A stretch of DNA of 53,000 nt from an uncultured Methanosarcinales archaeon. GTDB taxonomy: Archaea; Nanobdellota; Nanobdellia; Woesearchaeales; GW2011-AR9. The DNA is taken from contig CAYFOH010000003.1 in assembly GCA_964344755.1 (NCBI GenBank), positions 1 to 53,000 of the forward strand, given 5' to 3'. The translations under genes and the position numbers were made by a program. The notes beneath the pieces are model-generated. The model saw only the letters and a list, made by a program, of their open reading frames with translations, was not told where the DNA came from and searched no databases. Below are positions 6,130 to 40,858 of the stretch, piece by piece. Every line of letters starts with the position of its first letter. Positions within the stretch are counted from its first letter, which is position 1.

Positions 6130-6141
6130 AGTTGCATTAGG

Positions 6142-6149
6142 TTTAAATA
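6142..6149 (+). promoter_or_regulatory. Putative archaeal-type TATA box (TTTAAATA) 26 nt upstream of ATG 6175
   Basis: A/T octamer in a 45-nt spacer with no Shine-Dalgarno between it and the start codon. The spacing fits a leaderless transcript. Confidence 0.4.
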
Positions 6150-6174
6150 CGGTTTTTCCAATGGGTTAGTTAAG

Positions 6175-9378: not shown

Positions 9379-10602
9379 ATGAAAGTTCTTTTTGTTTCAG
9401 AATACTTTACCCCCTTCATTAAAGGTGGTGGGGAAATTAATCTTTTTTTGTTAGCTAAGGAATTAGTGAAACAAGGAGTACAGGTAAGTGTAATAACTTC
9501 ATACTTTGAGGGTTTGCAGAAGTATGAAGAAATTGAAGGCATACAAATACATAGAAAATTAAAGACAGGAAAAGATCCAAGCAAGCTTCTTAGTAATGTA
9601 AAAAGAAGCTTAATATTTGAAAAATCAATATGTGAAGAAGTTAAGGCCATCGCCGAGAGATATGATTTAATTCATCTCGTTGGAGCGAGTGTGGGGGCAG
9701 CCAAAAATCTAAGTCGATTAAAGATCCCCCTAATAGCAACCGTTGAAAGTTATCCTTTTTTATGTCCTAAGGGAGATAGAATTTATCATGGCAAAGACCC
9801 GTGTCGAGAAGTTTGCACATTTAACAAGTTTGTTAATTGCCAAAATAAATGTTCAGAGATTGGTAAAATGCGAAACAAAGCTTACCTAAAATATAATCCC
9901 TTCTTCTTGACTAGCCTTTTTAGAAGATATCAAAAATTAAATGATGCATTAAGCTATTGTAATTTAACTGCTATTAGTAAATATGTTAAGTTATTATTAG
10001 AACAACATGGTTATCAAAGCACAATTATTCCTAATGGACTAGACTTAAAAAAATTTCATATTAAAGAAAAAGAAAAGAAAATTGTTTACTTAGGATCACT
10101 TAATAGATTCAAAGGGCCACAATTGATTTTAGAAGCGGTAAAAGGTTTGGATTACAAAGTTGAGTTTTATGGGAAAGGTCCCTTAAAAAAATATCTAGAA
10201 AAAAAAATAATAGAATATAGGATCGAAGGAAAGGTAATTTCACAGGTCCCCTACGACAAAGTTCCAGAAATTTATGCAAGTGCAGCAATTGTTGTTTTCC
10301 CTTCTATTTGGCCAGAGCCATTTGGTAGAATTTCTATTGAAGCAATGGCTGCTGGCAGTTTAATTATTGGGTCAGAGGTTGGTGGAATCAAGGAAACTAT
10401 ACCACAGGGTTTAGGTATAAAATTTCGTCCAGGAGATATAAAAGAGCTAAGGGAAAAAATAATTAACTTTAAAGATAGTCCAGAATTGCAAGTAGCAAGA
10501 AGAAATTATGTTAAAAGAAATTATAGTAAAGAAATTGTTGTTAGGAAATTAATTGATTTTTATAATCAAATAAAGGTAGTAAAGACCCTAAACGCTGATT
10601 AA
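9379..10602 (+). CDS. GT4-family (GT-B fold) glycosyltransferase
   Basis: C-terminal EX7E-type region EPFGRISIEAMAAGSLIIGSEVGGIKE and N-terminal MKVLFVSEYF. Confidence 0.8.
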   Translation: MKVLFVSEYFTPFIKGGGEINLFLLAKELVKQGVQVSVITSYFEGLQKYEEIEGIQIHRKLKTGKDPSKLLSNVKRSLIFEKSICEEVKAIAERYDLIHLVGASVGAAKNLSRLKIPLIATVESYPFLCPKGDRIYHGKDPCREVCTFNKFVNCQNKCSEIGKMRNKAYLKYNPFFLTSLFRRYQKLNDALSYCNLTAISKYVKLLLEQHGYQSTIIPNGLDLKKFHIKEKEKKIVYLGSLNRFKGPQLILEAVKGLDYKVEFYGKGPLKKYLEKKIIEYRIEGKVISQVPYDKVPEIYASAAIVVFPSIWPEPFGRISIEAMAAGSLIIGSEVGGIKETIPQGLGIKFRPGDIKELREKIINFKDSPELQVARRNYVKRNYSKEIVVRKLIDFYNQIKVVKTLNAD

Positions 10603-11362
10603 TATAAGTCAGATCCTCTGGTCCAAAATAACTCTTATACCCGCCAACCTTACCTTTTCGCATCTTATAACTATTTCTATCTTCTTTATTTGTAGGTGTT
10701 AAGCGATGATCTGAACCAAATTTACTTGAAGCTTCCATTTTAAGCATGTTATTAAAAGAGCTTTGAGAAACAGCTTCCTCAAGTAAAGCCTCGTCAATTG
10801 CAACATCCAAAAACTGTAATACTCTTTTAAGTTGCAAAGAGGTACTTTGATGCAAATCTTCGTATCTCACTAAAACAAAATCATCGGGCCTTTTTTGCAT
10901 TTCTTCCCCCCATAAATTCATAAACTGAACTATTTTAGGTAACGTAAAGTCTTCCCTAATAAATGAACTAAGGGATTTCTGGTAACCTAACTTTCTTCTT
11001 TTGCTCCACTCAAAAAAGTAAGAAACTAAAACATCCTTAGGGTCTCTGACTAAGAAAATTATTTTCTTCTGATGTAAATTTTTAGTTATACTTAACGGCT
11101 TAGTTCCACCATGTTTAGCATAATTGCCAATTCTTGGATCTGTAGAAATGTTTGGTAAATCTTTCCCAAAAGTCATCTTGTAAAGGTCTAAATTTAACTT
11201 AAGGTTGTACTTTAAAGAAAAGTATTGAGCTAATAACATCCTTAACCAAGTTCTACCTGATTTAGGAAAAGAGATCAAATACACATCTGCAATCTGACTA
11301 ACTAAATAGTGGTAAGTTTTTTGCACAAGTGGATGAGTTTTAATATTCACAAAGTGTATCAA
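10541..11362 (-). CDS. PAPS-dependent sulfotransferase
   Basis: 5'-PSB motif SFPKSGRTWL and 3'-PB motif FLVRDPKDVLVSYF. The start is uncertain (TTG 11362 or GTG 11350). The 3' end overlaps the convergent GT4 gene by 62 nt. Confidence 0.75.
   Translation of the reverse strand: MIHFVNIKTHPLVQKTYHYLVSQIADVYLISFPKSGRTWLRMLLAQYFSLKYNLKLNLDLYKMTFGKDLPNISTDPRIGNYAKHGGTKPLSITKNLHQKKIIFLVRDPKDVLVSYFFEWSKRRKLGYQKSLSSFIREDFTLPKIVQFMNLWGEEMQKRPDDFVLVRYEDLHQSTSLQLKRVLQFLDVAIDEALLEEAVSQSSFNNMLKMEASSKFGSDHRLTPTNKEDRNSYKMRKGKVGGYKSYFGPEDLTYINQRLGSLLPLFDYKNQLIS
10547..10573. repeat. AT-rich quasi-palindrome (ATTGATTTTTATAATCAAAT core) inside the 62-nt convergent CDS overlap
   Basis: An imperfect inverted repeat centred on TTTTATAA. 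It is translated on both strands into similar peptides (LIDFYNQI / LFDYKNQLI). Confidence 0.6.
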
Positions 11363-12488: not shown

Positions 12489-13489
12489 GAATTTATTTTG
12501 ATGCCGATGTTGAAGAAAGAAAATACGAAGGTAGATCACAAACATCTATTTTGCTTAAGAGATTTTTAGAAAGTAAGGGGTACGAATTCGTTGATCATCC
12601 TAGGAAAGCTGATTTAATCCAAGTACATAGCAGTGGGATTTTTGCTTCTTTTAGAGCAGCTAAATGGAAAGAAAAATATAAAGTTCCAGTAATTTATACA
12701 TTGTATTCTATCTCTAAAACAGAACCTTTTAACCACTTTAGAAATCACTTCGCGCAGAGACATTACTTAAGAAAGAGAAAAACCAGTTTTGTTTTAAGTT
12801 ATTCCGCAATTTTGCCGTTAAAACTGAGGGGGTTTAACCTTAAAAAATTAGATGTTGTCGTGACCCCCTCAAAATTCGTGAAAAGAAGACTATTTAGAAA
12901 CACTAAGTTGATCAGAATTGGAATTGATTTAAATAAATTTAAACCGCTTGCTTTGCCAAAAAATGAAAAATTGAAAGTTGGTTATTTTGGTCATCCCAGT
13001 GCTTACAAAGGGGTTCTAGACTTTGCAAGAGCTTCAAATAAATTTCCTAGCCATTGGGAAGCTTATATTCATATTTCAGACGTTTCTAAAAGAATGTTAA
13101 GAACATTTAAGAAACTCTGTCCAAAAACAAAAATCTATGGGCATCTGGAAGATATTGCTAAAGCCTATAACGAAATGGATGTTATTGTTCTTCCCTACAG
13201 AAGCCATTTAGCTGGTGTAGCAAACCCGTTAGTATTAATCGAAGCAATGGCTTGTGGAAAAGCCATAATTACAACAAACTTTAGTTATCTAAAAGAAACT
13301 GTTAAAGATTCAGCTATTATTATAAAAACCTACTCACCTCACAGTATTGTTAAAGCCGTTAGAAAATTAGAAGATGAATCATTAAGAGATAGCCTGGGGA
13401 ATAAAGCAAGAAGGATTATAGAAGAAGAATATAGCCAACAAGAGATGCTAAAACAATACCTTGAATTGTATAGAAGATTTGAAAAATGA
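12485..13489 (+). CDS. GT-B fold glycosyltransferase (GT4-like)
   Basis: C-terminal VANPLVLIEAMACGKAIITTNF donor-binding region. ATGA overlaps on both sides. Confidence 0.65.
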   Translation: MRIYFDADVEERKYEGRSQTSILLKRFLESKGYEFVDHPRKADLIQVHSSGIFASFRAAKWKEKYKVPVIYTLYSISKTEPFNHFRNHFAQRHYLRKRKTSFVLSYSAILPLKLRGFNLKKLDVVVTPSKFVKRRLFRNTKLIRIGIDLNKFKPLALPKNEKLKVGYFGHPSAYKGVLDFARASNKFPSHWEAYIHISDVSKRMLRTFKKLCPKTKIYGHLEDIAKAYNEMDVIVLPYRSHLAGVANPLVLIEAMACGKAIITTNFSYLKETVKDSAIIIKTYSPHSIVKAVRKLEDESLRDSLGNKARRIIEEEYSQQEMLKQYLELYRRFEK

Positions 13490-14760
13490 GAACACCCCCT
13501 GAAATTAAAAAGATAATAAAATTATTCTCACAAAAAAAACTTTCCTATGTTTTGTTTAAGTGTGAACATATCTTTGATGGCCAGAATAAAAATCTTGATA
13601 TTCTATTTGAAACAAATCATGATTATCAAAAAGCTTCTACACTACTAAAAAAAGAAGGTTACGTTCTTTTTTTGCCAGAGAAATTAGAGAAATTTAAAGA
13701 AATGTATGTTAAATTTGACAATGTTGTTACAGCTATCCATTTACACCGAAAAATAGCTTGGCATGGCGTTGAAGCTATTAAGAAAAAAAGCGTTTTCAGA
13801 GACTCTAGGGCATTAGACAGCCATATTATTGTGCCTTCTCTAGAGGATCAACTATTAATTCACGCTACCCATGTTCTTTTTGAAAATTTTGCGATTAGCG
13901 AAAGAGAAAGAAAGTATGTTAATTTCGTTAAAATAAATAAAGAAATAGACTGGAAAAAAGAGTTCAATTCTTTTAAGAGAAGTTTTATCACGGGTAAGAG
14001 AATCCCTAAAAGAGCTATTTTAAATTGTTATATTAAAAGAACTGGTTTAAGGGAAGCTTTGTACTTGTTTACAAAATTTATGCGACTGATTCTTAGAAAA
14101 TTAAATCTTAGAAGAAGGGGAACTTTAATCTCTCTTATTGGAGTTAATGGCGCAGGTAAAAGTACAATAACAAGTGAGGTGGTTAGAGAACTTGGTCCCT
14201 TAATGAAGTTTTTGCACATTAAAGCGCACAAGAAATATTTTGGATGGCAACCTTTTACCCCTTGGGCCAAAATGTTATCTAAAAAAATGAAGAAAAAGAA
14301 AGTTTTTAAGAGCAGAGTTGAGGATAAAGAGGTTAAGGGATTTAGTTTATTTCAAGAAGGTTTATTTTTGTACAATTTCGTCGAATACCTGTTCAGATAT
14401 TGGATTAACATCTATCCAAAACTGAGAAAAGGTCACGTTGTGATAACTGATAGGTATTTCTATGACCTTTATGGACAGTATCCTTATGCCACTAGAAGTG
14501 TAGTTATCAACCTCTTAATGTTATTATTTCCTAAACCTGACAAGACCTTTGTTTTAGATGCCCCAACCCAAGAATTATTGCATAGAGAGAAAGAAGGAGA
14601 AGAAAGGAAAATCAAATCTGTTTCTTATTTAGAGAGTCAAAGAAGAAGATATCTAAGTTTAGGTTACCCTGTGATAAATACTGGCTGTGGGCTGTATGAT
14701 TCTGTTAAAGAAATTGTTAACAAAAGTTGGAAAAAGATTATTTGGAAGCAGAAGAATTAA
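13486..14760 (+). CDS. Two-domain protein: nucleotidyltransferase-like N-domain (NTP_transf_5-like) fused to a thymidylate-kinase-like P-loop domain; paralog of 29418-30668
   Basis: P-loop GVNGAGKST (nt 14140-14166), Tmk-like VVITDRY and LFPKPDKTFVLDAP motifs. A Lys-rich insert (KKMKKKKVFKSR) is followed by a hydrophobic helix. The N-domain has LDILFE...EGY...IHLHRKIAW and VPSLEDQLLIHATH. Confidence 0.5.
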   Translation: MRTPPEIKKIIKLFSQKKLSYVLFKCEHIFDGQNKNLDILFETNHDYQKASTLLKKEGYVLFLPEKLEKFKEMYVKFDNVVTAIHLHRKIAWHGVEAIKKKSVFRDSRALDSHIIVPSLEDQLLIHATHVLFENFAISERERKYVNFVKINKEIDWKKEFNSFKRSFITGKRIPKRAILNCYIKRTGLREALYLFTKFMRLILRKLNLRRRGTLISLIGVNGAGKSTITSEVVRELGPLMKFLHIKAHKKYFGWQPFTPWAKMLSKKMKKKKVFKSRVEDKEVKGFSLFQEGLFLYNFVEYLFRYWINIYPKLRKGHVVITDRYFYDLYGQYPYATRSVVINLLMLLFPKPDKTFVLDAPTQELLHREKEGEERKIKSVSYLESQRRRYLSLGYPVINTGCGLYDSVKEIVNKSWKKIIWKQKN

Positions 14761-15764
14761 ATTATTGTTTCCGTAGTTCTATATTCTGGAAAAGGTCTTC
14801 TATTGTCGCGTGGTGGAGAGACTAATTTATTGTAAACCTCTTGATTAAAAATGATATTTCCAACGTGGAAAGGCAAATTTAAAGACGAAAAACCTGACTT
14901 AAATTTTAATAATGCATCGTCCTCACTACCTCCACCGCCCAGATTCAAATACTTAAAACCATTTTTTTTTCCATAGAGGATGGCTTCCCACAACATTAAC
15001 CTTAATGGAGAACATTTAAACTTGTAATTCGTACAACCCAAATGATAATGTAGAATCTCGTGACCTTTTAACATAATAACACTAGATCCTACTTCACCTT
15101 CTTGATTTTCACAAAAAGATAAAAAGCAAGAAAGGTTAAAATGATCTTTAATAAAATTATGATTAAAAAAAAACTTTTTAGGAAGTTGATGTTTTTTCAT
15201 AGTAGAAAGATAGAGGCTAGTAAAAGTTTTTATTTCTTCCAAATTAGGACTTTCAACAAACTTCACTTTTGGAAACAGTTTCTTAGATTTATTTACGTAC
15301 CTCTTTGTGGTCTTGCTTAATTCGGCTTTAATTTTGTCCAATGGTTGAGTAAGATCAACAACAACAACCCTATTAACTTTAAAAACAGGAAATAGATTTG
15401 TGAAGACTTTATCGTTTTTTAAAAAAGGATTAAACCTGATATACTCAGAAACATAATTTTTCTCCTTGGCATACTTCTGATATTCCGCAAAAAATGAATT
15501 TAATGATTCTACCGAATTACCTTTAATTAACGGTCCCGTAAAACCGTAAGGACTTGAACAATCAAAATAATCTGTTAAAGGTATTTCCTTTACTAAATGG
15601 GGCCAAAATACTTTAATCTCATCGTCTTCCCAATAGATTGCCTCAACCTTACCATCAAAAAGTGAATGAAAAGCATGGCGAAAATAAAAATCGTTGTTAA
15701 AATTATTTTCTAAAAGTCTATCCCATTCTTCAGCTTCAGTTACTATCTTCATCTTTAACAGCAA
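14757..15764 (-). CDS. FemAB-like / Acetyltransf_6 GNAT-fold acyl- or aminoacyl-transferase
   Basis: C-terminal YLNLGGGGSEDDALLKFKSGFS motif and ~330-aa two-lobed layout, typical of FemAB-family proteins in glycan loci. Alternative start at 15752. Confidence 0.6.
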   Translation of the reverse strand: MLLKMKIVTEAEEWDRLLENNFNNDFYFRHAFHSLFDGKVEAIYWEDDEIKVFWPHLVKEIPLTDYFDCSSPYGFTGPLIKGNSVESLNSFFAEYQKYAKEKNYVSEYIRFNPFLKNDKVFTNLFPVFKVNRVVVVDLTQPLDKIKAELSKTTKRYVNKSKKLFPKVKFVESPNLEEIKTFTSLYLSTMKKHQLPKKFFFNHNFIKDHFNLSCFLSFCENQEGEVGSSVIMLKGHEILHYHLGCTNYKFKCSPLRLMLWEAILYGKKNGFKYLNLGGGGSEDDALLKFKSGFSSLNLPFHVGNIIFNQEVYNKLVSPPRDNRRPFPEYRTTETII

Positions 15765-16443
15765 CCATTATTGAATGTTTAACTTCTTTTTCCATATTCT
15801 GTAAACTTTTGATCAAATATTCTTGAGAAACGATTTTTAGGCCAGCTTCAGAAATTAAATTAAATAGATCCTTGTGATCAGCAAAATAAGTTGTCCCTTG
15901 ATTAGCAAATAAACCTTCTTTAACATTACCAACAGTGTCTTTATCAACTAAATTTTCTTTGCCATAACCCCAAGAATCTTTTAACAAGTGCCAAGAAAAG
16001 AATTTACCGCCTGATTTTAAAACACGTTTAACTTCACTATATATTTTGGAGTGATCAGAATAAGGTAAACACCAAGCGGTTGCTACATCAATTACAACAT
16101 CAAAACAATCATTAGAAAAAGGCAGTTGTCTAATATCTCCTTGTTTAAACTTTTCAGAAAAATTCTCAAAAGAGAAGCCATCTTCTTCTAAAAAATGTTT
16201 GCACTTCTTTAAAGCGGAAGGAGAGATATCAATTCCATAAACATCAAAACTTTCACGCATCAAAAACCAAACGTTGGCTCCTTGACCGACACCCAGCTCT
16301 AAAATTCTAATATTTTTTCTGTCTTCTTTATTTAACTTAAAATAATTTCTGCCAATAAAACGAACCAACTCCTCATTAGGATACTTACCCCAAGCTCTTG
16401 ACGCATGGATCTCTTCCCAGACATTATTGGAAATAGGTTGCAT
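15736..16443 (-). CDS. Class I SAM-dependent methyltransferase
   Basis: Motif I ILELGVGQGAN, acidic loop YGIDIS and DVVIDVAT. Confidence 0.75.
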   Translation of the reverse strand: MQPISNNVWEEIHASRAWGKYPNEELVRFIGRNYFKLNKEDRKNIRILELGVGQGANVWFLMRESFDVYGIDISPSALKKCKHFLEEDGFSFENFSEKFKQGDIRQLPFSNDCFDVVIDVATAWCLPYSDHSKIYSEVKRVLKSGGKFFSWHLLKDSWGYGKENLVDKDTVGNVKEGLFANQGTTYFADHKDLFNLISEAGLKIVSQEYLIKSLQNMEKEVKHSIMVAVKDEDSN

Positions 16444-19321
16444 TTAATGTTACCTCATCTTTTTTTAGATCTCTTGTTAGTTTTTTTCCTTTGAATTTAA
16501 AAAAGTTCTTAGCTTCTAGTCCTTGATTGGCCCTTTTAAAAATAAAATTTTCTTCTGTTACTAAATCTCCTTCTTTAAGATCCCTAGCAGCAACAATTCT
16601 TCTGATAATTAACTCTCTAGTAGGGATTTCAGAAGGCATGGGCTTTTTCTTTCCGTCCCCTAACAATTTCTCTGTCCGCCTAACTGCATCCACCATAGCT
16701 TTAAACTCGTCAGGTGTCAAAGATGCTTTATGATCAGGACCAGGCAGATTTTTATCAATAGTAAAATGTTTCTCTATATATACCGCCCCCAAGGCTCTAG
16801 CTGCTACAGGAGCTTCTGAACCTAATGAGTGATCAGAGAAACCTACAAGAGTGTTAAGGTTCTCCTTAAGATTTAACATTGCTCTAACATTAACCTCTTC
16901 ATCAGCACAAGGATAGTTAGAAGTACACTGACAAACGATGATTTGGTCATTCCCCTGGTTCCTAAGAATATCAACTGCCTTTTTCACTTCCTCAATGGTG
17001 GTTGTGCCAGAAGAAATTACCATAGGTAAATTAAACTTAGCAGTATATTTCAGTAAAGGATAATTAGTTATATCTCCAGAACCTACCTTCATTAAAGGAA
17101 TTTTTACTTCTTTAATTAAAAAGTCAACACTCTCTTTATCTTCCATAGTTGAGAAAAATATTAACCCCAGATCTTCAGCATATTTCTTCAACTCAAAGTG
17201 CCAGGGGTAAGGTAATTCTAATTTTTTGAGCATGTCAAATTGTGACTCTTGTGATTGTAAATTTTCTTTTTGATATTCAGCCATCTCTACATTGTTTAAA
17301 ATGATGTTTTCTGTTTTCCAAGTTTGAAACTTAACTGCATCTGCTCCAGATTGCTTAGCAGACAGAACCATCTTTTTGGCTAACTCTAAATCCTGGTTAT
17401 GGTTCACACCAATCTCTGCAACAATAAAACAAGGAGAATTTTTACTTAAGGTCCTCCCGGAAAAAGAAAATTCTTTCTCTTTACTTTCTTTGCTCAACAA
17501 AGCTTCTGCAATCTTAAAATCGTGGGGTTCGTCGATGTCGATAGACCTTTCCAAAGGCATAATTACAGCTTCGTGATTGTTCCCATAGAGTGTTTGGTTC
17601 TCAGTTAATAGTTTGGTTTTAACAGCATACACTGCACCATTTTCAATATAATATTCTGGAAGATCTTGACTCCTTTTCAAAAAATCTTGTGGATTTATAA
17701 ACTCTACCTTATTATTGTTTAACTTAGCCATATAGGCAGGGTGAGTAGTGACTGGAGAAAAAGTTTCCGCGGAGTCAGCCCCATGAATCACCTTCAAAAT
17801 AACTTTGTCTATGTCTTCAACATCTCTTAAAGGGGAGGTTGGTTGCAGGACGACAACAATGTCTGGAGAATAGCCTTCGTTCTCTAATGTCCTTAGAACA
17901 TGGTTTAGTACTGGAACAGTAGGAGTGTCATCTTGCGCCAATTCTTTTGGTCTGTCTATGACTTCGGCATTTTCCCTTAATGAAACTAATTTTATGTCTT
18001 CATCATCTGTAGAAACTACTGTTCTAGTTATAAATTTAGAATTCTTGGACTGCTTAATGGCATAAGAAATAAGCGGGCTCCCAACCAAGTCTTTAATATT
18101 TTTCTTAGGAATTCTTTTCGACCCACCCCTGGCAGGAATTATTGCTAAAATTTCTTTTTCTTGTTTAGAAGAAGATAAAGATTGTTTAACAACATCACAA
18201 ACCTCTTCAATATCTTCTTCAGTTAAACTAACAGAACAGGGAACATTTAATGTTCTGTCCCATAATTCTTTAGCTTTTTCAATTCGGTAACTTTGACAAC
18301 CTAAGTAAGGTTTTTGTTCATGAGCTAGACTCCAAGCTAATCTTGCTTGGATATTGTTCCTAGCCAGAGTTTCTTTAACTTGGTTCCTTAACTCTTTATT
18401 AGGAAATTGTAAAGAATAAAACCAACAGTTTGATTTAGAATATTCCGGTTGAACAGCTACTTTAACTGGACTATCGGCTAACAATCTTTTATACGTTTCC
18501 AGATTCTCCCTTTTTTTCTGAATAAATCCAGTTAATTGTTCAAATTGGGCTACACCAATAGCTGCTGCAACGTTAGACAAACGATAATTATAACCTATTT
18601 CTTCATGGACATAATCGTCGGAACCTTTCTTGGCCTGGTTTGTTAAATATAAAGCTTTGTCAGCCAGTTCCTTATTGTTTGTTACTAACATTCCGCCTCC
18701 ACCAGTTGTCATAATTTTGTTACCATTAAAACTGAAACAGGCAATATCCCCAGAGTTGCCAACCCTTTTGCCTTTATATTCTGACCCCAAAGCTTCACAA
18801 GCATCTTCAATTATTCTAAGGTTATATTTTTGACAAATCTCTAACAAGGGATCCATATCAACAGAAACACCAAACAAATGTACTGGCACTACTGCTTTAA
18901 CTTGTCTTCCTGTTTTTTTATTATAACATTTACCTTCTCTTGATTCACACTCCTCTTCTAAAAAACGTTTTACCTTTTTAACATCCAAATTATAATATTG
19001 ATCACTGTCCATAAAAACTGGTTCAGCACCAAGATACTTTACAGCATTAGCACTAGCAATAAAAGTGAGGGTAGGTACTAAAACTTCATCGTTACAGCCG
19101 ACACCACAAACTCTTAGAGCAAGTTGTAAAGCTGCTGTTCCATTAATACAGGCTACGGCATATTTCAAACCAACATAATTGGCAATTAATTCCTCAAATC
19201 TTTTTACATAACTTCCAACAGAAGAAACCCATTCTGTGTCTAAACACTCCTTAACATATAACCATTCGTTTCCTTTAATGGTAGGCACACTTAACGGAAT
19301 GAACTTTTCCATTATTCCCAC
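16424..19321 (-). CDS. Triple fusion: LegC/PseC-like aminotransferase + CMP-nonulosonate synthetase (NeuA/LegF-like) + nonulosonate synthase (NeuB/LegI-like, with SAF domain)
   Basis: aa 1-383 (nt 18173-19321): DegT fold, FSFNGNKIMTTGGGG. aa 388-612 (nt 17486-18160): ILAIIPARGGSKRIPKKN cytidylyltransferase motif. aa 622-965 (nt 16427-17458): CFIVAEIGVNHNQD, GFSDHS and a C-terminal SAF-like tail. No stop codons between the modules. Confidence 0.9.
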   Translation of the reverse strand: MGIMEKFIPLSVPTIKGNEWLYVKECLDTEWVSSVGSYVKRFEELIANYVGLKYAVACINGTAALQLALRVCGVGCNDEVLVPTLTFIASANAVKYLGAEPVFMDSDQYYNLDVKKVKRFLEEECESREGKCYNKKTGRQVKAVVPVHLFGVSVDMDPLLEICQKYNLRIIEDACEALGSEYKGKRVGNSGDIACFSFNGNKIMTTGGGGMLVTNNKELADKALYLTNQAKKGSDDYVHEEIGYNYRLSNVAAAIGVAQFEQLTGFIQKKRENLETYKRLLADSPVKVAVQPEYSKSNCWFYSLQFPNKELRNQVKETLARNNIQARLAWSLAHEQKPYLGCQSYRIEKAKELWDRTLNVPCSVSLTEEDIEEVCDVVKQSLSSSKQEKEILAIIPARGGSKRIPKKNIKDLVGSPLISYAIKQSKNSKFITRTVVSTDDEDIKLVSLRENAEVIDRPKELAQDDTPTVPVLNHVLRTLENEGYSPDIVVVLQPTSPLRDVEDIDKVILKVIHGADSAETFSPVTTHPAYMAKLNNNKVEFINPQDFLKRSQDLPEYYIENGAVYAVKTKLLTENQTLYGNNHEAVIMPLERSIDIDEPHDFKIAEALLSKESKEKEFSFSGRTLSKNSPCFIVAEIGVNHNQDLELAKKMVLSAKQSGADAVKFQTWKTENIILNNVEMAEYQKENLQSQESQFDMLKKLELPYPWHFELKKYAEDLGLIFFSTMEDKESVDFLIKEVKIPLMKVGSGDITNYPLLKYTAKFNLPMVISSGTTTIEEVKKAVDILRNQGNDQIIVCQCTSNYPCADEEVNVRAMLNLKENLNTLVGFSDHSLGSEAPVAARALGAVYIEKHFTIDKNLPGPDHKASLTPDEFKAMVDAVRRTEKLLGDGKKKPMPSEIPTRELIIRRIVAARDLKEGDLVTEENFIFKRANQGLEAKNFFKFKGKKLTRDLKKDEVTLNATYFQ

Positions 19322-20304
19322 ACTCCATTGTTCTTAATATCTTCAACATACCACTGCATAGTTTTCTGGAATCCTTCTTCCAAAGATACCTCTGGATGAA
19401 ACCCTGTCAACTCCTTAATTTTTGTTGTGTTTGGACATCTTCGGTCAACGGATCCTAACGGAGGTTCTACTAACTTAAGTTCAGGGTGGTGATCTAAACC
19501 ATCCAGAAGGATTTTTACACCCCTTAAAATTTTACTTTCCTCAGAACTATTTCCAACGTGAAGGATTTCGTTTTTAGTCTTGTCTGAACTCATAGCTAGT
19601 ACTGTTTGTTTTATAGCATCAGAAATATAACAGAAAGCTCTCGTTTGATTATATCCATATACTAAAAAAGGATCTTCCTTGTTGACGATTCTTTTAACTA
19701 CTTCAGGCAAAAAATGAGCATAACCCATCCGGGGACCGTAAATGTTATGATACCTAACAATAACATATTCATAATTGTCCTTAGAATTAAAAATAACTAA
19801 TTGTTCTCCAACAAGTTTACTGGAAGCATAAGACATTCTAGGGTTGTAGATATCTTTTATAGATAAGGGAACTTTCTCGTTAGTTGGTACTTGGACAATC
19901 CCTAAATCAAAACTACTAGCGTAAGTTTCACAACTAGAACTAAACAATATACGTTTACATCTATTCTCTTTAACCAGTTTAATAACATTCATTGTTGTGA
20001 TTATGTTAACGTCAAGAACTAATGCTGGATTGTTCATACAGTGTTTAACTCCAATAATGGCTGCAAGATGATAAACATGGTCATAATATTGCCAAACCTT
20101 TTCTTTCATCTCTTCTAAATTCATTAAATTAACCTGCTGGAATTGAACATTAGGTCTTTCTATTAATTCCTTGAACAAAGTGTCTATTCGTCCTCTTCTT
20201 AAATTGTCAGCCAGAACAAGCTGGTTTTCTGAATTTTTAGAAAGATGATTAGCTAAATGGTATCCCACAAACCCTGCTGCACCAGTAATCAATATTTTAC
20301 TCAT
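19312..20304 (-). CDS. Extended SDR NAD-dependent nucleotide-sugar epimerase/dehydratase
   Basis: ILITGAAGFVGYHL Rossmann motif, SSSCE and YASSK (YxxxK) catalytic elements. 8-nt overlap with the upstream dehydrogenase. Confidence 0.8.
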   Translation of the reverse strand: MSKILITGAAGFVGYHLANHLSKNSENQLVLADNLRRGRIDTLFKELIERPNVQFQQVNLMNLEEMKEKVWQYYDHVYHLAAIIGVKHCMNNPALVLDVNIITTMNVIKLVKENRCKRILFSSSCETYASSFDLGIVQVPTNEKVPLSIKDIYNPRMSYASSKLVGEQLVIFNSKDNYEYVIVRYHNIYGPRMGYAHFLPEVVKRIVNKEDPFLVYGYNQTRAFCYISDAIKQTVLAMSSDKTKNEILHVGNSSEESKILRGVKILLDGLDHHPELKLVEPPLGSVDRRCPNTTKIKELTGFHPEVSLEEGFQKTMQWYVEDIKNNGVWE

Positions 20305-21667
20305 TCAAATGACCTTTTCCTATTCCTATTACTTTGTGTCCCCTCTCCTTTAAGACTGTTATTTTAGCATCATCTAGGATGTTAAACGTATCTACAATTA
20401 GGCTCTGGGGCTTTAAGCTTTGTGAAAACTTGTTTGGATCTAATTCAAGGTACTCTTTATGTCTAACTGCTAAAACAAGAATATCAAAATCTTGATAATT
20501 TTGGCCACAAAAAACATCTATTTTGTCATGATAAGTTTCTATAATAGGATCAGTTACCAAACAAGTAGCACCTTCCTTTTTAAGAGCATCACATAAAATT
20601 TTGGAGGGACTGTTCCTAGTATCAGCTACATCCGGCATATAAGAATAACCTAAAATAAGAACCTTTTTGTCGGTCAGGTCAATATGTTGTTTAATTCTGT
20701 TAAGCGTGTGCAAAGGCATTTTGTCATTAATAGCAATTGCTTGCAAAGTTAAAGGCAATTTTTTTCCAGAATAAAAATGGTTAGCACCCCATTGAGCAAA
20801 CAAAGCATCTTTAGGTAAGCAATAACCGCCAACCCCAAAACCAGGATTCATGATGTTGTCATGGGTCCCTTTCCTTTTCTTAATTGCTTGAATAACTTCA
20901 AATAGATTGATTCCCATGTCTTCAGCCAACTCTGTCCATTCTTGGATAAAAGCAATATTCATCGCACGATAGCTATTTTCTAAAACTTTAGCTAATTCTG
21001 TACTCTGTGAATTGTTAAAGTAAGTAAGAGGATAGTTTTTTGTGTCAATGATATTTTCAAAAAATTCTTGTGCTCTGTCTTTGGCTTCTTGACAATTAGC
21101 AGAGTAATTTCGCCAAAAATGAGTTATTGATTTAAGATAATGTTTACCAGGCATGACTCTTTCATAAGAATGACAGATTAAAGGTTTGGAAGAAATGTTT
21201 CTTTTAAAAAACTCTTGTTTAACTGTTTTTTCAACAATATTTTTTGTTGTTCCTGGGGGTACAGTTGTCTCAATAATAACTAAACAATCTGGTTTAATTT
21301 TTTGAGCAAACGTTTTGATAGCAATCTCAAATCTTTTTATTGTAACTTTAGGTTCTTCATAAGGAGATTTTTTGTCAACACTTAAATCGACATCGACAAT
21401 TACAATGTCAGCATCTTTGTACTCATCTGGATTGTTGCTAGCTTTAAGGTTCTTGATTTCTAATACTGCTTCCTTTAATTTTTTTTTTAAAGAGTCGTCT
21501 TCACAGAAAAAGAGTAGTTCTCCTTCGTTAATGGCAGTTATTTTTCTTTTGTCTATGTCAACACCTACTACTCTATAAATTGGTTTCTGGTTCTTTCTAG
21601 CACTGGCTACTGCAGTAGCCATGGCTGAACCAACAAATCCCAGACCTTGCACACATACTTTCTGCAT
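20297..21667 (-). CDS. Nucleotide-sugar 6-dehydrogenase (UDP-glucose/GDP-mannose dehydrogenase family; WecC/TviB/WbpO-like)
   Basis: N-terminal GLGFVGSAMA NAD fold and catalytic-Cys motif GVGGYCLPKD. 456 aa. Confidence 0.85.
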   Translation of the reverse strand: MQKVCVQGLGFVGSAMATAVASARKNQKPIYRVVGVDIDKRKITAINEGELLFFCEDDSLKKKLKEAVLEIKNLKASNNPDEYKDADIVIVDVDLSVDKKSPYEEPKVTIKRFEIAIKTFAQKIKPDCLVIIETTVPPGTTKNIVEKTVKQEFFKRNISSKPLICHSYERVMPGKHYLKSITHFWRNYSANCQEAKDRAQEFFENIIDTKNYPLTYFNNSQSTELAKVLENSYRAMNIAFIQEWTELAEDMGINLFEVIQAIKKRKGTHDNIMNPGFGVGGYCLPKDALFAQWGANHFYSGKKLPLTLQAIAINDKMPLHTLNRIKQHIDLTDKKVLILGYSYMPDVADTRNSPSKILCDALKKEGATCLVTDPIIETYHDKIDVFCGQNYQDFDILVLAVRHKEYLELDPNKFSQSLKPQSLIVDTFNILDDAKITVLKERGHKVIGIGKGHLNE

Positions 21668-21745: not shown

Positions 21746-22144
21746 TTAAGGAGAATATTTTTCTGGATTAAGAATTAATTCATAAACAGTTTTTTCCGAG
21801 ATGTATTCAGGAAGATCACTACCGGGATTATGACTAAGAACCAATCTAAAACCATATTCTAACATAACTAACTCAGAAAGTCTGGTGTGAGGTACACAAG
21901 TTTTAAAACTAAGCCCCTCAATGGAAAAAAAATCTTTGGGTGTCATTTTTACTCCTTCTCTAACATTTGTCTCATCACTCATCAGCTCAACAAGAATATC
22001 AACACTTTCTGGAGCATAAGGCTCATTATCAGAAACTTTTCTATTCACAATCTTTGAATCATTAAGGTACTTTATTGCTGCCTGCAAATAGAGATATTGG
22101 GTGCCCCTATAAGACGGCCCAAAAAAAACTTGAATTTCTTTCAT
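21746..22144 (-). CDS. Hypothetical protein (132 aa)
   Basis: Clean ORF between two pathway genes with short spacers on both sides. No motif recognised. Confidence 0.4.
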   Translation of the reverse strand: MKEIQVFFGPSYRGTQYLYLQAAIKYLNDSKIVNRKVSDNEPYAPESVDILVELMSDETNVREGVKMTPKDFFSIEGLSFKTCVPHTRLSELVMLEYGFRLVLSHNPGSDLPEYISEKTVYELILNPEKYSP

Positions 22145-22175: not shown

Positions 22176-23285
22176 TTATCCCTGCTTAAACCTAAACTCG
22201 TCATTTTCCAAATGACCTAAAACTTCTTCGTACTTCTCCCACTGTCCAATGTCAAACCATTGATTAGACCTGATTGGAAAAACACCTACTTTAATTCCCC
22301 TCTTGATTAAATCTGTCAACAAGTCAGTTGTATCATATTTCTTGTCTCTAGGAATATATTGCAAAACTTCTGGTTCTAAAACGTACATCCCTGTGTTTAT
22401 CAGATGATCATATTCTGGCTTCTCATGGATTGATTCTACTGTTCCTTCCTCTTTAAGATTTAAAACACCATAAGGTACTTTAGTGTTCTTTAAAGCTCCA
22501 ACAACAGTTACTTGGTTCTCGCTGTTTTTATGAAAATTTAAAATTGCAGTATAATTGGCATCAATCAAAATGTCACAATTAGAAACAAAAAAAGTTTCAT
22601 TTAATTGATCTTTAAGATAAGCTAAACCACCAATAGTTCCTAGTTTTTTGCCAGCAAGTTCATCTTCATTAATGAAATTAATCTGACAACCGTGATCAAT
22701 ATAAGAAAAATAAGTTTTAACCATCTCGGCCATATAATTTACACTGATATGAAAATTTTTTAGTCCGTAGGATTGGAAATTTTCTATTATTCTTTGAATG
22801 ATTGCTTTTGAACCAACTGGTGCCAAAGGTTTTGGTAAAATACCCGTTAGAGGTCTTAATCTCGTACCCTCGCCGCCAGCCATAATTACCACTGGATTTG
22901 ATAAGAGATCTGAAAAAGATTTCTCAATTAAATCAAGATAAGAAATAACATTAACTATTTTATCCGCAGAATCAATAATTGGGAGGTGCCTGATCTCTTT
23001 TTGGGTCATTCTTTCCTTAATAGTTTCTTTAGATACTAACTCATGGGAAAATATTTTAGTTGGGTTAGGATTCATAAAATTAGCAACCTTTTCGTTTAAA
23101 GGAACTTTTTTCAAAATCGATCTCCGAACGTCACCATCTGTTACACATCCAACTAACTTTTTTTGATAGTTCACCACAAAAAGAGTACTAATTCTAAACT
23201 TATCCATATTAGCCATGGCCTGCTTAAGTGTGATGTCCTGATTAATCAACATACCTTGAAAATCTTTCATTGTTCGCCCCAACAA
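22176..23285 (-). CDS. CBS-pair + sugar-phosphate nucleotidyltransferase (PtmE-like HexNAc-1-P nucleotidyltransferase candidate)
   Basis: The N-terminal ~125 aa has CBS-pair character (VGCVTDGDVRR, IRHLPIID). It is followed by VIMAGGEGTRLRPLT (GxGxRL NTP_transferase motif). The likely true start is the ATG at 23270 (ATGA overlap with the upstream stop). Confidence 0.8.
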   Translation of the reverse strand: MLGRTMKDFQGMLINQDITLKQAMANMDKFRISTLFVVNYQKKLVGCVTDGDVRRSILKKVPLNEKVANFMNPNPTKIFSHELVSKETIKERMTQKEIRHLPIIDSADKIVNVISYLDLIEKSFSDLLSNPVVIMAGGEGTRLRPLTGILPKPLAPVGSKAIIQRIIENFQSYGLKNFHISVNYMAEMVKTYFSYIDHGCQINFINEDELAGKKLGTIGGLAYLKDQLNETFFVSNCDILIDANYTAILNFHKNSENQVTVVGALKNTKVPYGVLNLKEEGTVESIHEKPEYDHLINTGMYVLEPEVLQYIPRDKKYDTTDLLTDLIKRGIKVGVFPIRSNQWFDIGQWEKYEEVLGHLENDEFRFKQG

Positions 23286-24427
23286 AGCTTTTTCTTCAGT
23301 AAAGATTGAAAATCTTCAATTTTTTCTAGTTCTTGTGATAAGTAGTTACTAAAATCCCCGTTACCATAAGGAGATTTGACGTCTTTAATTTCTTCAAGAA
23401 ATTCATCGCTCAATGCTTTATTAATAGCTGGAACTATCTCTTCTTCCGAACAGTCAATAATATTCTTACAACGTAATCTTCCTTTTTGGCGATTACCAAC
23501 ATTTATGGTAGGTTTTCTAAAAGCAGGAGTTTCAATAATTCCACTAGAAGAGTTGCCGATTACAACATCGCATAAACGCATTAAGTTAAGATATCTCTCA
23601 TGCCCTAAATTATGAAAAAAGTAGACGTCGGGTTTGTTTTTAGCATATTCTCTTAACTTCTGGCTAATCAAAGAGCCGCCAAAGTCTTGGTTTGGTGAAG
23701 TGATTATTTGAATAGAATCAAAACTCTTAAGCCCAGAAATAAAAAAGTTCACTTGTTCTTTTATCTTTTCTACTTCTAAGGTTGTGGGGTGATATGTTAT
23801 CAAAAATATAGGTTTGGAATTGTTCGCAATTTTAAGTTGATCAAACAGCTCCAACTTTGATAAAACAGGAATTTTCTTTATGTTCTCTATACAAGGATCA
23901 CCACAATTAAAAACACGAGCAGGGTCTTCACCTAGTCTAATAAGGTTCTTGTAGCTGGGAGTTGAACCAGGAAAATGTAAGTGAGATAATTTGGTTAAAG
24001 CATGTCTTATTTGTTCATCTATTGCACCTTCTGAAACGTCCCCTCCACTGATATGGACTATTGGGACATTCATAACAGTAGCTACACCAGCAGCTGCCAG
24101 AAGTTCGTATCGATCACCTAAGAAAATCATTAAGTCTGGGCTTATCTTAGTGAAAAGATCCGCTAATTCTTTAGTTAAAATAGACATGGAAACTGCTAAA
24201 TCTCTTTTAGAAAAATGATCTTTGTCAGGTAATATTTTTATTTTGTGGACATTCTTAATTCCTGCTTTTTCAATCTCTTGAATAGTATAACCATGATGCT
24301 TAGAAAGATGAGAACCTGTGGCTACAACATGTATTTCGAAAGAGTTGTTTTCCCCTAACTTTTTAATAGGCCAATAAAGCAGATCAAAGGACATCCTACC
24401 TTCTGTCAGTACCACGACTCTTTTCAT
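23267..24427 (-). CDS. neuC: Hydrolysing UDP/GDP-HexNAc 2-epimerase (NeuC/LegG family)
   Basis: GDRYELLAAAGVATVMNVPIVHISGGDVSEGAIDEQIRHALTKLSHLHF matches the NeuC-type 2-epimerase core. Confidence 0.85.
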   Translation of the reverse strand: MKRVVVLTEGRMSFDLLYWPIKKLGENNSFEIHVVATGSHLSKHHGYTIQEIEKAGIKNVHKIKILPDKDHFSKRDLAVSMSILTKELADLFTKISPDLMIFLGDRYELLAAAGVATVMNVPIVHISGGDVSEGAIDEQIRHALTKLSHLHFPGSTPSYKNLIRLGEDPARVFNCGDPCIENIKKIPVLSKLELFDQLKIANNSKPIFLITYHPTTLEVEKIKEQVNFFISGLKSFDSIQIITSPNQDFGGSLISQKLREYAKNKPDVYFFHNLGHERYLNLMRLCDVVIGNSSSGIIETPAFRKPTINVGNRQKGRLRCKNIIDCSEEEIVPAINKALSDEFLEEIKDVKSPYGNGDFSNYLSQELEKIEDFQSLLKKKLCWGEQ

Positions 24428-24519: not shown

Positions 24520-25965
24520 ATGAAAAAAAATTGGGACAGTTTAAATGTAAAACAGAGTTTTGAAGAGCAGTTAAAAATAGATGAATTTCCTGTGTGGTGG
24601 TTTTATAATAGAATTTTTACTAGACATGTAATGCCTTCTCCTGTAAACACGTTTAAAGATATGGAAGGGAAAATAAAGTTAAGCTATATAAAAAGAAAAA
24701 AACTGGATTTATCTTCTAAAATTCTAGAAAATTTACTTTATCTAAGGGAACAAAAGAAACTGAATTATTTTAAAGGTAAATCTCATCATAGTAAAGAAAA
24801 AAAGGTACTCTTTCTCAGTTATTCTAACTATTTAGACAAGGAAGGAAAACTATTTCGAATACAAAAAATAGTAGATAATCTCCCCAACTCCCAAATTGTT
24901 TTTGTTGACCCACTTTCTTCATTTGATTATAAGAAGCTAAAAGGCAAGAAAACCATTTATGATTATTACGACAATACGATCAAAAAAGAGAGCAAAAAAT
25001 CAGCCCAAGAATTATTTGAAAAGTGGCAGAGATATCAGGAAGAACCATTGGAAAACTGGCAATACTTAAAATATGGTTTTAGACTATTCTTCTCTAAAAA
25101 ACTGTTAGCTCTTTTAGTTACATATTACAAACTCTTTGAAAAGGCTCTTGAAAACACTAAAGTTGTTGTTATAACCGGACAAAGCAGTATTTTTGAAAAA
25201 TGTTTAATTGCTGTAGCTAGCAAGAAAAAGGTCCCCGTTTTAAGATTACAACATGGTGTTGGGGAAGAATTAGTCACCCCTGATATCTTTGATAATGTCT
25301 ACAAGTTAGTTTTTAGTGAAAAAGTTAAGAAAGATCTAGAAAAATTAGGTTATCCTTCTGAAAAAGTTAAAGTTGTTGGGCCAGTAATCTTTGACGATAT
25401 AGTCAATTATGTTAAACCCAAAAAGAAAGAGAGAAATGTTCTTATCGCAACACCTGGAACCTGGGCCAGTGGAATACTAGAAACAAAAACTTATTTCTCT
25501 AGATTAAAAAAGATAATCAACAGAATGAAAGAAGTCCATCTAATCATTAAATTACATCCACGAGAAACTAAAAATCACTGGCAAAAGTACAAAGAAGAGT
25601 TTCCTAATATTAAAATATTTGAGGGAAAAATATCTAGAAAAGAATTTTATGACTTGATCCAGTGGTCTGATGTATTTATCACATTTGGTTCTACAGCTTC
25701 CATTGAGGCGATGATTGTTAAAAGGCCCGTAGTAAATATAAACTTATTAGACGACAAATTTGTTACAGGTTGGATTGAAGAAAAAAAGATAACGATTAAT
25801 TGTCAGTATTATGAAGATGTAGGGAGGTTTGTTGAACAGGCTTTTAGTGATTATAATTCTTATTTTAAGAAGCAAGAGAACTTTTTAAAAGAAAAATGTG
25901 GGAAGTTAGATGGGAAAGCTTACCAAAGAGTTGTAGATATTGTTAAATCACTCCCTTCCACTTAG
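24520..25965 (+). CDS. GT-B-like transferase of uncertain specificity (TagF/capsule-polymerase-like or sialyltransferase-like, HP motif)
   Basis: VLIATPGTWAS (compare the TagF-family APTWR motif), IIKLHPRE (HP motif) and FITFGSTASIEAMIVKRPVV. Divergently transcribed from the nonulosonate operon. Confidence 0.4.
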   Translation: MKKNWDSLNVKQSFEEQLKIDEFPVWWFYNRIFTRHVMPSPVNTFKDMEGKIKLSYIKRKKLDLSSKILENLLYLREQKKLNYFKGKSHHSKEKKVLFLSYSNYLDKEGKLFRIQKIVDNLPNSQIVFVDPLSSFDYKKLKGKKTIYDYYDNTIKKESKKSAQELFEKWQRYQEEPLENWQYLKYGFRLFFSKKLLALLVTYYKLFEKALENTKVVVITGQSSIFEKCLIAVASKKKVPVLRLQHGVGEELVTPDIFDNVYKLVFSEKVKKDLEKLGYPSEKVKVVGPVIFDDIVNYVKPKKKERNVLIATPGTWASGILETKTYFSRLKKIINRMKEVHLIIKLHPRETKNHWQKYKEEFPNIKIFEGKISRKEFYDLIQWSDVFITFGSTASIEAMIVKRPVVNINLLDDKFVTGWIEEKKITINCQYYEDVGRFVEQAFSDYNSYFKKQENFLKEKCGKLDGKAYQRVVDIVKSLPST

Positions 25966-40324: not shown

Positions 40325-40858
40325 ATGCCTCTAAAAATAAAGAATCTTGAGGAAGAAGATCTTGAAGGATTAGTAGAAGTTATATCTACTACTTTCCCCC
40401 AAGATTTTGATTATGGAGAAGGTTTTTCAGAAGAAGCTTGCTACAAATTCTTTGAAAGAAGTTTACAAGACCCTAACGAAAAAGTTTATACAGCTATTTT
40501 AAATAATAAGACTGTTGGATTTGTTTATTACATAAATAAACCACCTACTAATGGAACAATACTTTTAGAAATGATGGGTGTAAGAAAAAATTACCGAAGA
40601 CAAGGCATTGGAAAAAGACTGTTAAATTTCTCAGATGAAAAAGTTGTAGAAGATTTTAAAAAAAAAGGAATAAATAATATAGCCACCATCCACCTTACTA
40701 CCAGTGAGGATAATTTGGCTGCACAAAGTCTTTATCTTCAGTGTGATTATAAAAAAGAAGGTCGAATTAAAGAACTGGTTGGAAAAGGAAACACTGAAAT
40801 TGTTATGGTAAAGAAGGTTTCTGATACTGCTTATAGAAAAGATCTCTGGATCTCTTGA
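40325..40858 (+). CDS. GNAT-family N-acetyltransferase
   Basis: Motif A MGVRKNYRRQGIGKRLL. 177 aa. The 3' end overlaps the convergent aminotransferase by 28 nt. Confidence 0.75.
   Translation: MPLKIKNLEEEDLEGLVEVISTTFPQDFDYGEGFSEEACYKFFERSLQDPNEKVYTAILNNKTVGFVYYINKPPTNGTILLEMMGVRKNYRRQGIGKRLLNFSDEKVVEDFKKKGINNIATIHLTTSEDNLAAQSLYLQCDYKKEGRIKELVGKGNTEIVMVKKVSDTAYRKDLWIS

Follow-up and report, generated by a model that had tools for sequence, protein, structure and literature searches.

Can three enzymes of nonulosonic acid biosynthesis be carried on one archaeal polypeptide, and if so, is that polypeptide a genuine gene product, what would it make and how did it arise? We address these questions for a stretch of 53,000 nucleotides from an archaeon of the phylum Nanobdellota (contig CAYFOH010000003.1 of assembly GCA_964344755.1, positions 1 to 53,000; hereafter the window), in which a single open reading frame (ORF) joins modules of the LegC, LegF and LegI families: a sugar aminotransferase, a cytidine monophosphate (CMP)-nonulosonate synthetase and a nonulosonate synthase. 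Our reading, which is probably correct, is that this ORF is a genuine single gene that arose by ordinary fusion of neighbouring operon genes and encodes a trifunctional enzyme of the CMP-legionaminic type. A 'Rosetta-stone' fusion of this kind is the best supported of the readings weighed below.

Archaea make legionaminic acid for N-glycans, and the pathways characterised in Campylobacter jejuni (LegB/C/H/G/I/F with PtmE), Tannerella forsythia, Bacillus subtilis (Sps) and Halorubrum sp. PV6 use the same families and the same chemical logic as the window. The enzymes of these four pathways are all separate polypeptides. The window departs from them in joining three enzymes, in lacking LegH and in having a dehydratase of only distant likeness to LegB. 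A first-pass annotation, made from the letters of the window alone, had described these enzymes as separate proteins, and for the LegC, LegF and LegI families this is borne out in Halorubrum, T. forsythia and B. subtilis. Natural fusions of two activities of nonulosonic acid pathways do occur, such as the mammalian GNE epimerase/kinase and bacterial NeuA with a C-terminal O-acetylesterase. These bifunctional proteins are built from other domain families, and to our knowledge an aminotransferase, a synthase and a cytidylyltransferase are not combined in any of them.

One reading frame with three modules

Positions 16424 to 19321 of the minus strand hold a single ORF of 965 codons, counted from a GTG at 19321, with zero internal stops. 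The ATG at 19312, three codons inside this GTG, is the likelier start: public gene calls begin there and give a protein of 962 residues (P0001) that ends with the stop codon at 16424-16426, and the same ATG shares one base with the TAA stop of the upstream gene, which encodes a short-chain dehydrogenase/reductase (SDR) (TAATG; GAATAATGG). The 3' end of the fusion shares 20 bases with the next gene, that of a methyltransferase. The coordinates given in the first-pass annotation thus stand, with the strand corrected to minus and the start to the ATG. Its central claim, one uninterrupted frame holding three modules, is confirmed by the ORF itself and by the Pfam and NCBIfam matches, and the module bounds it proposed agree with Pfam within a few residues.

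The Pfam search suggested in that annotation returned all four domains, with all three modules far above their thresholds. In the 965-residue numbering, DegT_DnrJ_EryC1 covers residues 15-378 (E=2.5e-105), CTP_transf_3 residues 393-584 (E=9e-28, 98 bits vs a gathering threshold of 22.6), NeuB residues 651-892 (E=1.5e-89) and SAF residues 909-957 (E=5e-6, 27.3 bits vs a cutoff of 21); catalytic residues and module bounds are given below and in Table 1 in the 962-residue numbering. With this length, a G+C content of 34% and these E-values, chance is not an issue as a source of the ORF. In NCBIfam the first module belongs to the LegC family TIGR04181 (474.8 bits, above the cutoff of 420), while the PseC model of the pseudaminic (Pse) pathway remains below its cutoff (261.8 vs 423.5 bits). 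The third module passes NeuB_NnaB TIGR03569 marginally (401.8 bits vs 399.65) and does not reach the PseI cutoff (289.7 vs 340.25 bits). The middle module scores 163.8 bits with the PseF equivalog TIGR03584, below the cutoff of 205.7, and is therefore not filed as PseF; no LegF-specific model was present among the NCBIfam matches of the fusion.

Aligned with proteins of known structure, all three modules look catalytically competent. The lysine expected to bind pyridoxal phosphate (PLP), K199 in the motif FSFNGNK, aligns with the catalytic lysine of perosamine synthetase 3bn1, which is an alanine in the otherwise identical chain 3dr4. In the LegF module, R395, K404, N405, Q490, D592 and D594 align with R12, K21, N22, Q104, D209 and D211 of the CMP-Neu5Ac synthetase of Neisseria meningitidis (1eyr), where R12, K21, Q104, D209 and D211 are nucleotide, Mg and sugar-binding residues. 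The LegI module was compared with N. meningitidis NeuB (1xuu) at the histidines that bind metal, the acidic residues of catalysis and the arginine of the SAF domain (R314); E633, K742, H828, H849 and R927 align with its E25, K129, H215, H236 and R314. The position of NeuB E134 is an aspartate (D747) in the window, an exchange described as typical among archaeal synthases (PMC8208679).

AlphaFold2, run on an alignment of 58 sequences, predicts three well-folded modules (mean pLDDT 89.5). Helices extend into both joints, which leaves 4-5 unstructured residues in each; at junction 1 the helix runs up to residue 383 and the following strand begins at residue 388. The pTM of 0.52 gives no confident fixed packing among the modules. 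A sequence search of the PDB found no chain that spans more than one module of the fusion protein.

The junctions hold in a second assembly

Junction 1 is spanned by the peptide QEKEILAIIPAR, and the stretch SKEKEFSFSGR runs across junction 2. At each junction stop codons occupy both other frames, and inspection of the junctions showed no ATG, GTG or TTG start closely upstream of the LegF or the LegI module. A second member of the 90% cluster of the fusion (P0387) is identical in 960 of 962 residues. Its source is a MEGAHIT assembly built from another run (ENA ERZ930065, run ERR2281800, project PRJEB17505), in which a contig of 25,943 bp (L092) aligns with the window over 18,657 bases with 2 substitutions, no gaps and identical junctions. 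The first-pass annotation had named stop codons or frameshifts at the junctions among the findings that would refute its claim; the assembly of another run has no indels there and carries the same 962-residue ORF, so that an assembly error is unlikely.

We nevertheless weighed whether two or three ordinary genes could have been joined artificially, by a missed stop or by a one-base indel such as might occur in the GAAAAAG run of junction 1. This junction does hold a run of five A, an ATG lies out of frame 45 bases upstream, and one extra A would split off a LegF that starts with a 15-residue leader; moreover, the Leg-type junction 1 was seen in this population only. On the other hand, a two-gene version demands an overlap of about 90 bases in addition to a leader that is atypical for LegF, and the identical junctions of the different-run assembly would have to be explained as well. 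A one-base indel in the run of five A was therefore deemed unlikely. In the remainder of the 53-kb window no gene looks frameshifted, and dozens of independent proteins of two domains align collinearly across junction 2. A triple fusion of pseudaminic type, described below, recurs with an unchanged protein sequence on 14 contigs of several assemblies, which indicates that such proteins exist. Taken together, we regard an artefact as highly unlikely.

A rare architecture, already deposited

To place the architecture, we queried 5.8 billion protein clusters with the window protein and, in reverse, with its only counterpart, considering the best 120 matches of each search; 498 retrieved proteins, 80 loci of named genomes and 80 metagenome loci (the latter by tblastn as well) were also covered. 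The search with the window protein returned one other protein of the order DegT-CTP_transf_3-NeuB-SAF (P0004), and the reverse search found this architecture only in P0004 and the window protein. Among the retrieved proteins, all three modules occur together in just two clusters, that of P0004 and the window's own (P0001, P0387), and neither set of loci holds a further LegC-LegF-LegI ORF. The best 150 matches of a HMMER search of 1.84 billion representatives contain no protein of the same architecture, their best full-length-like matches being CTP-NeuB proteins; they do not include P0004 either, nor a related LegC fusion discussed below (P0002), and the list is thus unusable for counting the architecture.

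P0004 is a protein of 989 residues from Candidatus Staskawiczbacteria, 33% identical over 98% of the query and deposited as 'hypothetical protein A2822_04470' or 'AFP-like domain-containing protein' (OGZ65285.1, HLD80283.1, UniRef100_A0A1G2HS84). The three-module architecture is thus rare yet already deposited. The first-pass annotation had supposed it to be undescribed. This holds for the literature that we searched, in which we found no paper on either fusion, no description of a natural aminotransferase-cytidylyltransferase-synthase fusion and no mention of nonulosonic acids from DPANN or Candidate Phyla Radiation (CPR) organisms; it does not hold for the databases, given the Staskawiczbacteria entries.

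The Staskawiczbacteria protein shares with the window its order of domains, its place in a glycan locus and its origin in an ultra-small lineage with a reduced genome, in this case of the CPR. Unlike the window protein, it is bacterial, uncharacterised and of pseudaminic type, with PseC (507.5 bits) and PseF (295.3 bits) both over their cutoffs. Compared with the window, its three modules reach 31%, 37% and 34% identity to LegC, LegF and LegI, respectively, while PseC-PseF two-domain proteins of about 612 residues match the protein at 58-61% identity. In concordance with these identities, a neighbour-joining tree of the cytidylyltransferases, computed without bootstrap, groups P0004 with PseC-PseF proteins and the window with CTP-NeuB proteins. 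The pseudaminic type and the low module identities indicate that the two proteins were assembled separately, and we read the identical layout as one reached independently in an archaeal legionaminic and a bacterial pseudaminic pathway.

Relatives of the modules and the route to fusion

The modules of the window protein differ in their nearest relatives, and judged by these the polypeptide is a mosaic. Its LegC module is closest, at 61% identity, to that of a 994-residue protein (P0002, locus L008), which is a fusion of LegC, LegH and LegI: the middle module is an acetyltransferase of NeuD/PglD type (TIGR03570, 208 bits) and not a cytidylyltransferase. Locus L008, from a metagenome, is syntenic with the window and resembles it in the order of its operon (LegG, PtmE-like, dehydrogenase, SDR, fusion) and in its flanks, which hold a flippase, a glycosyltransferase and a PfkB-SIS protein, with neighbouring proteins 49-69% identical. 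For the single pairs, identity is 54% for LegG, 58% for the PtmE-like protein, 66% for the nucleoside diphosphate (NDP)-sugar dehydrogenase, 64% for the SDR, 69% for the flippase and 62% for the PfkB-SIS protein. It differs from the window in that LegF is encoded by a separate gene of 234 codons, and the LegI module of P0002 is 42.5% identical to that of the window.

Two-domain proteins of CTP_transf_3 and NeuB make up 79 of the 498 retrieved proteins and fall into dozens of clusters. Those with about 570 residues (P0005 and P0009, for example), some with a SAF domain, align with residues 389-958 of the window protein in one stretch at 44-46% identity, and their junction is laid out as junction 2 of the window, without an extra linker. 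They lack the aminotransferase module, come from Patescibacteria, Elusimicrobiota and many unnamed contigs, and are labelled 'N-acetylneuraminate synthase' or 'N,N'-diacetyllegionaminate synthase' in their sources. At junction 1 the window stretch SSKQEKEILAIIPARGG aligns with the extreme N-terminus (residues 2-9) of a free CTP-NeuB protein, SDKRKPVILAIIPARGG; this joint is thus simply two native tails set end to end. A simple inheritance of the LegF-LegI part from the two-domain family, with LegC added later, was considered as well; it is weakened by the 66% identity of a free LegI in another locus (L097) and by the NeuB tree, in which fused and free-standing synthases are intermixed.

Fusion most likely came about through loss of the stop and start codons between adjacent, translationally coupled genes. 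In one locus (L096) the genes for a DegT and a CTP-NeuB protein adjoin and overlap in a TAATG. We rejected this locus as an orthologous precursor, since its DegT and the window's LegC share only 30% identity, and it illustrates the arrangement only. In many metagenome contigs legC, legH and legI are three abutting separate genes.

Fusions are frequent and combinatorial throughout the pathway. LegC is joined to LegB (about 695 residues), PtmE (about 757 residues), a PIN domain, a methyltransferase, a GNAT domain, a glycosyltransferase or LegH-LegI; the synthase appears in NeuB-LegC, NeuB-NeuC, CTP-GFO-NeuB, CTP-NeuB-GNAT and NeuB-NeuB-CTP proteins; further combinations are PseC-PseF, PseC-PseF-GNAT and SDR-DegT-CTP. 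A survey of archaeal gene fusions reports fusion/fission families in most lineages but not in DPANN and Ca. Hydrothermarchaeota (PMC11237513), and for this reason we do not describe DPANN genomes in general as fusion-rich. Metagenomes also contain very long and seemingly uncharacterised multi-enzyme fusions (P0401, P0404 and P0409, 1079-1124 residues; P0431, 1109 residues; P0174, 963 residues), composed of SDR, CBS, DegT and cytidylyltransferase, or NeuB, SDR and DegT, or two NeuB with a cytidylyltransferase.

Several observations weigh against an ordinary fusion of neighbours that yields a CMP-legionaminic enzyme. The nearest relative of the LegI module is a free-standing synthase of 349 residues, that of L097, and LegF relatives among the retrieved proteins, the nearest of which lie inside CTP-NeuB two-domain proteins, do not exceed 48% identity. 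The loci examined include no unfused precursor in which an orthologous legC stands immediately upstream of legF-legI, and in the 80 named-genome loci the usual order is C...I...F with intervening genes. The two assemblies share project and population and are therefore not fully independent. As to the product, the NeuB module is only 2 bits above its NCBIfam cutoff, the SDR falls under the LegB equivalog score and LegH is absent, so that the exact product may differ from Leg5Ac7Ac. As an observation on L097 itself, positions 3998-6778, in a genome of similar G+C (33%), carry the free LegI gene, a gene like glycosyl hydrolase family 88 and a free CTP_transf_3 gene (45% identical), a split F-x-I arrangement.

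Neighbour fusion or scaffold

The free sugar produced by LegI is the substrate of LegF, so these two steps are consecutive, and LegC acts two steps before LegI. The first-pass annotation had called the joined steps non-consecutive. This is correct for LegC, which is separated from the other two, and incorrect for LegI and LegF, whose steps follow one another and which are commonly fused in the two-domain proteins counted above.

On substrates inferred from the families, the N-terminal LegC module would aminate, with PLP, the NDP-4-keto-6-deoxy-N-acetylhexosamine (HexNAc) made by the SDR. The LegG and PtmE-like genes nearby agree with a module that would act on a GDP- or NDP-4-keto-6-deoxy-GlcNAc and add the amine equatorially. 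The product would be N-acylated and then hydrolysed and 2-epimerised by separate proteins, with LegG as the epimerase. The C-terminal LegI module would condense the released 6-deoxy-mannosamine derivative with phosphoenolpyruvate, and the middle LegF module would activate the resulting nonulosonic acid with cytidine triphosphate; the stereochemistry of the product is predicted in the same way. A likely benefit of the fusion is co-expression, and the free sugar may possibly be handed over from LegI to LegF. Channelling from LegC to the other two modules probably does not take place.

The joining of distant steps had led the first-pass annotation to suggest a scaffolded metabolon. In its full form, the fusion would nucleate a complex that recruits the dehydratase, acyltransferase and 2-epimerase, with channelling and fixed stoichiometry, and would itself be a co-axial dimer or grow into an open polymer. 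The parent families of all three modules are homodimers in solved structures, with active sites shared across the interface; together with joints of 4-5 residues, this means that such a dimer or polymer might form. The very short joints between well-folded modules in the AlphaFold2 model agree with this, as does the conservation of residues that act across the interface, for instance R927 (NeuB R314). The order of the three modules was reached twice, once by a DPANN archaeon and once, in pseudaminic form, by a CPR bacterium, which could reflect selection, and several more sugar-pathway genes are fused within the same 53 kb.

The two steps between LegC and LegI, N-acylation and hydrolysis with 2-epimerisation, are nevertheless carried out by enzymes outside the fusion. 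In addition, the partners of LegC vary freely by lineage (SDR, PtmE, LegH, methyltransferase, GNAT, PIN, glycosyltransferase), the related locus L008 fuses LegH and not LegF in the middle, and the model offers no confident interface between modules. In view of the intermediate steps and the changing partners, the metabolon is left without positive support, and we consider it unlikely. A still more specific version, a 'synthasome' in the sense of a defined higher-order particle that docks the free dehydratase, acyltransferase and epimerase, channels their intermediates and was selected in the ultra-small cells of DPANN and CPR, appears to us more doubtful yet. Selection for co-stoichiometry in a reduced genome, which the same annotation had also raised, is possible. 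The variety of fusion combinations, some of which (LegC-LegH-LegI) match a common gene order, fits opportunistic fusion of neighbours better than a designed scaffold.

If the fusion is active as predicted, the six-step route to a CMP-activated sugar of legionaminic type has three of its steps on one polypeptide, which would be convenient for the enzymatic synthesis of sugars that are hard to obtain. It also provides a natural test case of whether enzyme fusion alters pathway flux. What is new here is the legionaminic-type version of a rare layout built from well-known families, a layout that the bacterial pseudaminic pathway seems to have reached separately. The protein involves no new chemistry and no new class of system; it is a curiosity of use in enzymology and in work on DPANN surface glycobiology, and adds to the evidence of a heavy investment by these archaea in surface glycans that resemble sialic acid, with a possible bearing on how they attach to a host.

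Operon and predicted product

The fusion sits in a minus-strand operon of legionaminic type with overlapping stop and start codons (Table 1).

Table 1 Modules of the fusion and genes of its operon, with positions in the window and supporting evidence.
Feature	Position	Strand	Evidence
LegC-LegF-LegI fusion, full coding sequence	16424..19312	-	ORF; source gene call; second assembly with identical length and junctions
Module 1, aa 1-377, predicted LegC-family PLP-dependent sugar aminotransferase	18182..19312	-	Pfam DegT; TIGR04181; K199
Junction 1, aa 378-387, SLSSSKQEKE	18152..18181	-	Abutting LegC C-tail and LegF N-tail; no inserted linker, stop or start codon
Module 2, aa 388-609, predicted CMP-nonulosonate synthetase, LegF/NeuA type	17486..18151	-	Pfam CTP_transf_3; residues vs 1eyr
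Junction 2, aa 610-614, SKEKE	17471..17485	-	Between last LegF helix and first LegI strand
Module 3a, aa 615-890, predicted NeuB/LegI synthase catalytic barrel	16643..17470	-	Pfam NeuB; TIGR03569; residues vs 1xuu
Module 3b, aa 891-962, SAF / antifreeze-like C-terminal domain	16427..16642	-	Pfam SAF; R927
LegG/NeuC-type hydrolysing NDP-HexNAc 2-epimerase	23267..24427	-	TIGR03568, 404.2 bits vs cutoff 235.9
CBS + nucleotidyltransferase, PtmE-like; would make NDP-linked hexosamine precursor	22176..23285	-	Pfam
132-aa ORF	21746..22144	-	No match in Pfam or NCBIfam; PDB matches at chance level; absent from L008
NDP-sugar dehydrogenase	20297..21667	-	Pfam; NCBIfam; same-position gene in L008
Extended SDR, candidate NDP-HexNAc 4,6-dehydratase (LegB role)	19312..20304	-	Pfam Epimerase / GDP_Man_Dehyd; homologue in L008
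Methyltransferase dependent on S-adenosylmethionine, 3' of fusion	15736..16443	-	Pfam
FemAB / Acetyltransf_6-like protein, final operon gene	14757..15764	-	Weak Pfam matches

Where a LegG-type epimerase and a PtmE homologue occur together, the route is called legionaminic and not pseudaminic, and in T. forsythia the PtmE homologue was taken as a sign of a GDP-linked legionaminic route (PMC5378307). The SDR occupies the position of LegB and scores 111.6 bits with the LegB model TIGR04180 (NCBIfam), vs a cutoff of 475. The NDP-sugar dehydrogenase has no role in the canonical pathway. No hexapeptide acetyltransferase of LegH/PglD type was found among the 46 ORFs of at least 120 residues in the window; possible substitutes are the FemAB/Acetyltransf_6-like gene that ends the operon and a GNAT gene at 40325-40858. 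A sequence search of the PDB for relatives of the FemAB-like ORF gave chance-level matches only. Since the window holds no LegH, the FemAB-like protein is probably the candidate N-acyltransferase that replaces it. Together with the methyltransferase and the missing LegH, it suggests that the nonulosonic acid may be decorated in an unusual way, by N-acyl or methyl groups.

These features raise the possibility that the modules are real and the product is another one: a different isomer of the 5,7-diamino nonulosonates, a sugar with altered N-acylation or methylation, or the outcome of one module being relaxed or repurposed. The lack of a LegH-type enzyme and the FemAB-like and methyltransferase genes after the fusion would agree with this, as would the low LegB score of the SDR, a cytidylyltransferase under the PseF cutoff, a NeuB barely above its own, and the unexplained dehydrogenase conserved within the cluster. 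Sequence conservation among LegF/PseF enzymes is low, possibly reflecting specificity for modified substrates (PMC5378307). Against such a departure, the LegC equivalog score exceeds its cutoff, the NeuC/LegG-type epimerase and the PtmE-like gene are both present as markers for the legionaminic over the pseudaminic route, and the catalytic residues of all three modules are intact. We therefore think another product improbable and retain the CMP-legionaminic reading, with the qualification that, as LegH is absent and the acyl group may come from the FemAB-like enzyme or the GNAT, the product may be a modified legionaminic acid. The FemAB-like and methyltransferase genes, which close the operon with overlapping frames, are both absent from L008.

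Host and surface-glycan island

Judged on one marker, the host is a DPANN archaeon (Nanoarchaeia/Woesearchaeota-like): the serine hydroxymethyltransferase of the window is 69-72% identical to proteins of Candidatus Nanoarchaeia, Woesearchaeota or Nanoarchaeota, which points to a DPANN origin. With the same marker, the premise of the first-pass annotation that the genome is a streamlined one is supported, as the host would be a small-celled archaeon of DPANN type. Scans for tRNAs and Rfam families gave no match in the window.

Nearly all of the 53 kb is a surface-glycan island with glycosyltransferases, sulfotransferases, a flippase, several DegT aminotransferases, PMT_2-type transferases and a GDP-mannose dehydratase. 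Besides the triple fusion it carries two fused sugar-pathway genes. At 98-2398 (+) lies the gene of a 766-residue protein with two tandem aminotransferase domains of DegT type (Pfam total 737 bits in two stretches), and such double-DegT proteins of about 775-790 residues are frequent among the database matches (P0010, P0123). At 6175-7812 (+) a 545-residue protein fuses a PfkB-family sugar kinase to a SIS isomerase; it is the PfkB-SIS protein shared with L008, there at 16974-18635 (-).

Two proteins of about 420 residues, encoded at 13486-14760 (+) and 29418-30668 (-), have a weakly thymidylate-kinase-like C-terminal half. A protein of the same size with the same weak Pfam match is encoded at 5691-6980 of the Staskawiczbacteria locus (L001), about 2.3 kb upstream of the pseudaminic-type fusion. 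Divergent from legG, a gene at 24520-25965 (+) encodes a 481-residue protein with a weak C-terminal match to Epimerase_2 (GT-B-like), which makes it a possible candidate for a transferase that uses the CMP-sugar; a 518-codon gene that matches Epimerase_2 lies at the edge of L008. Finally, genes of the sulfotransferase family at 10541-11362 (-) and 26301-27224 (-) hint at sulfated surface glycans in this archaeon.

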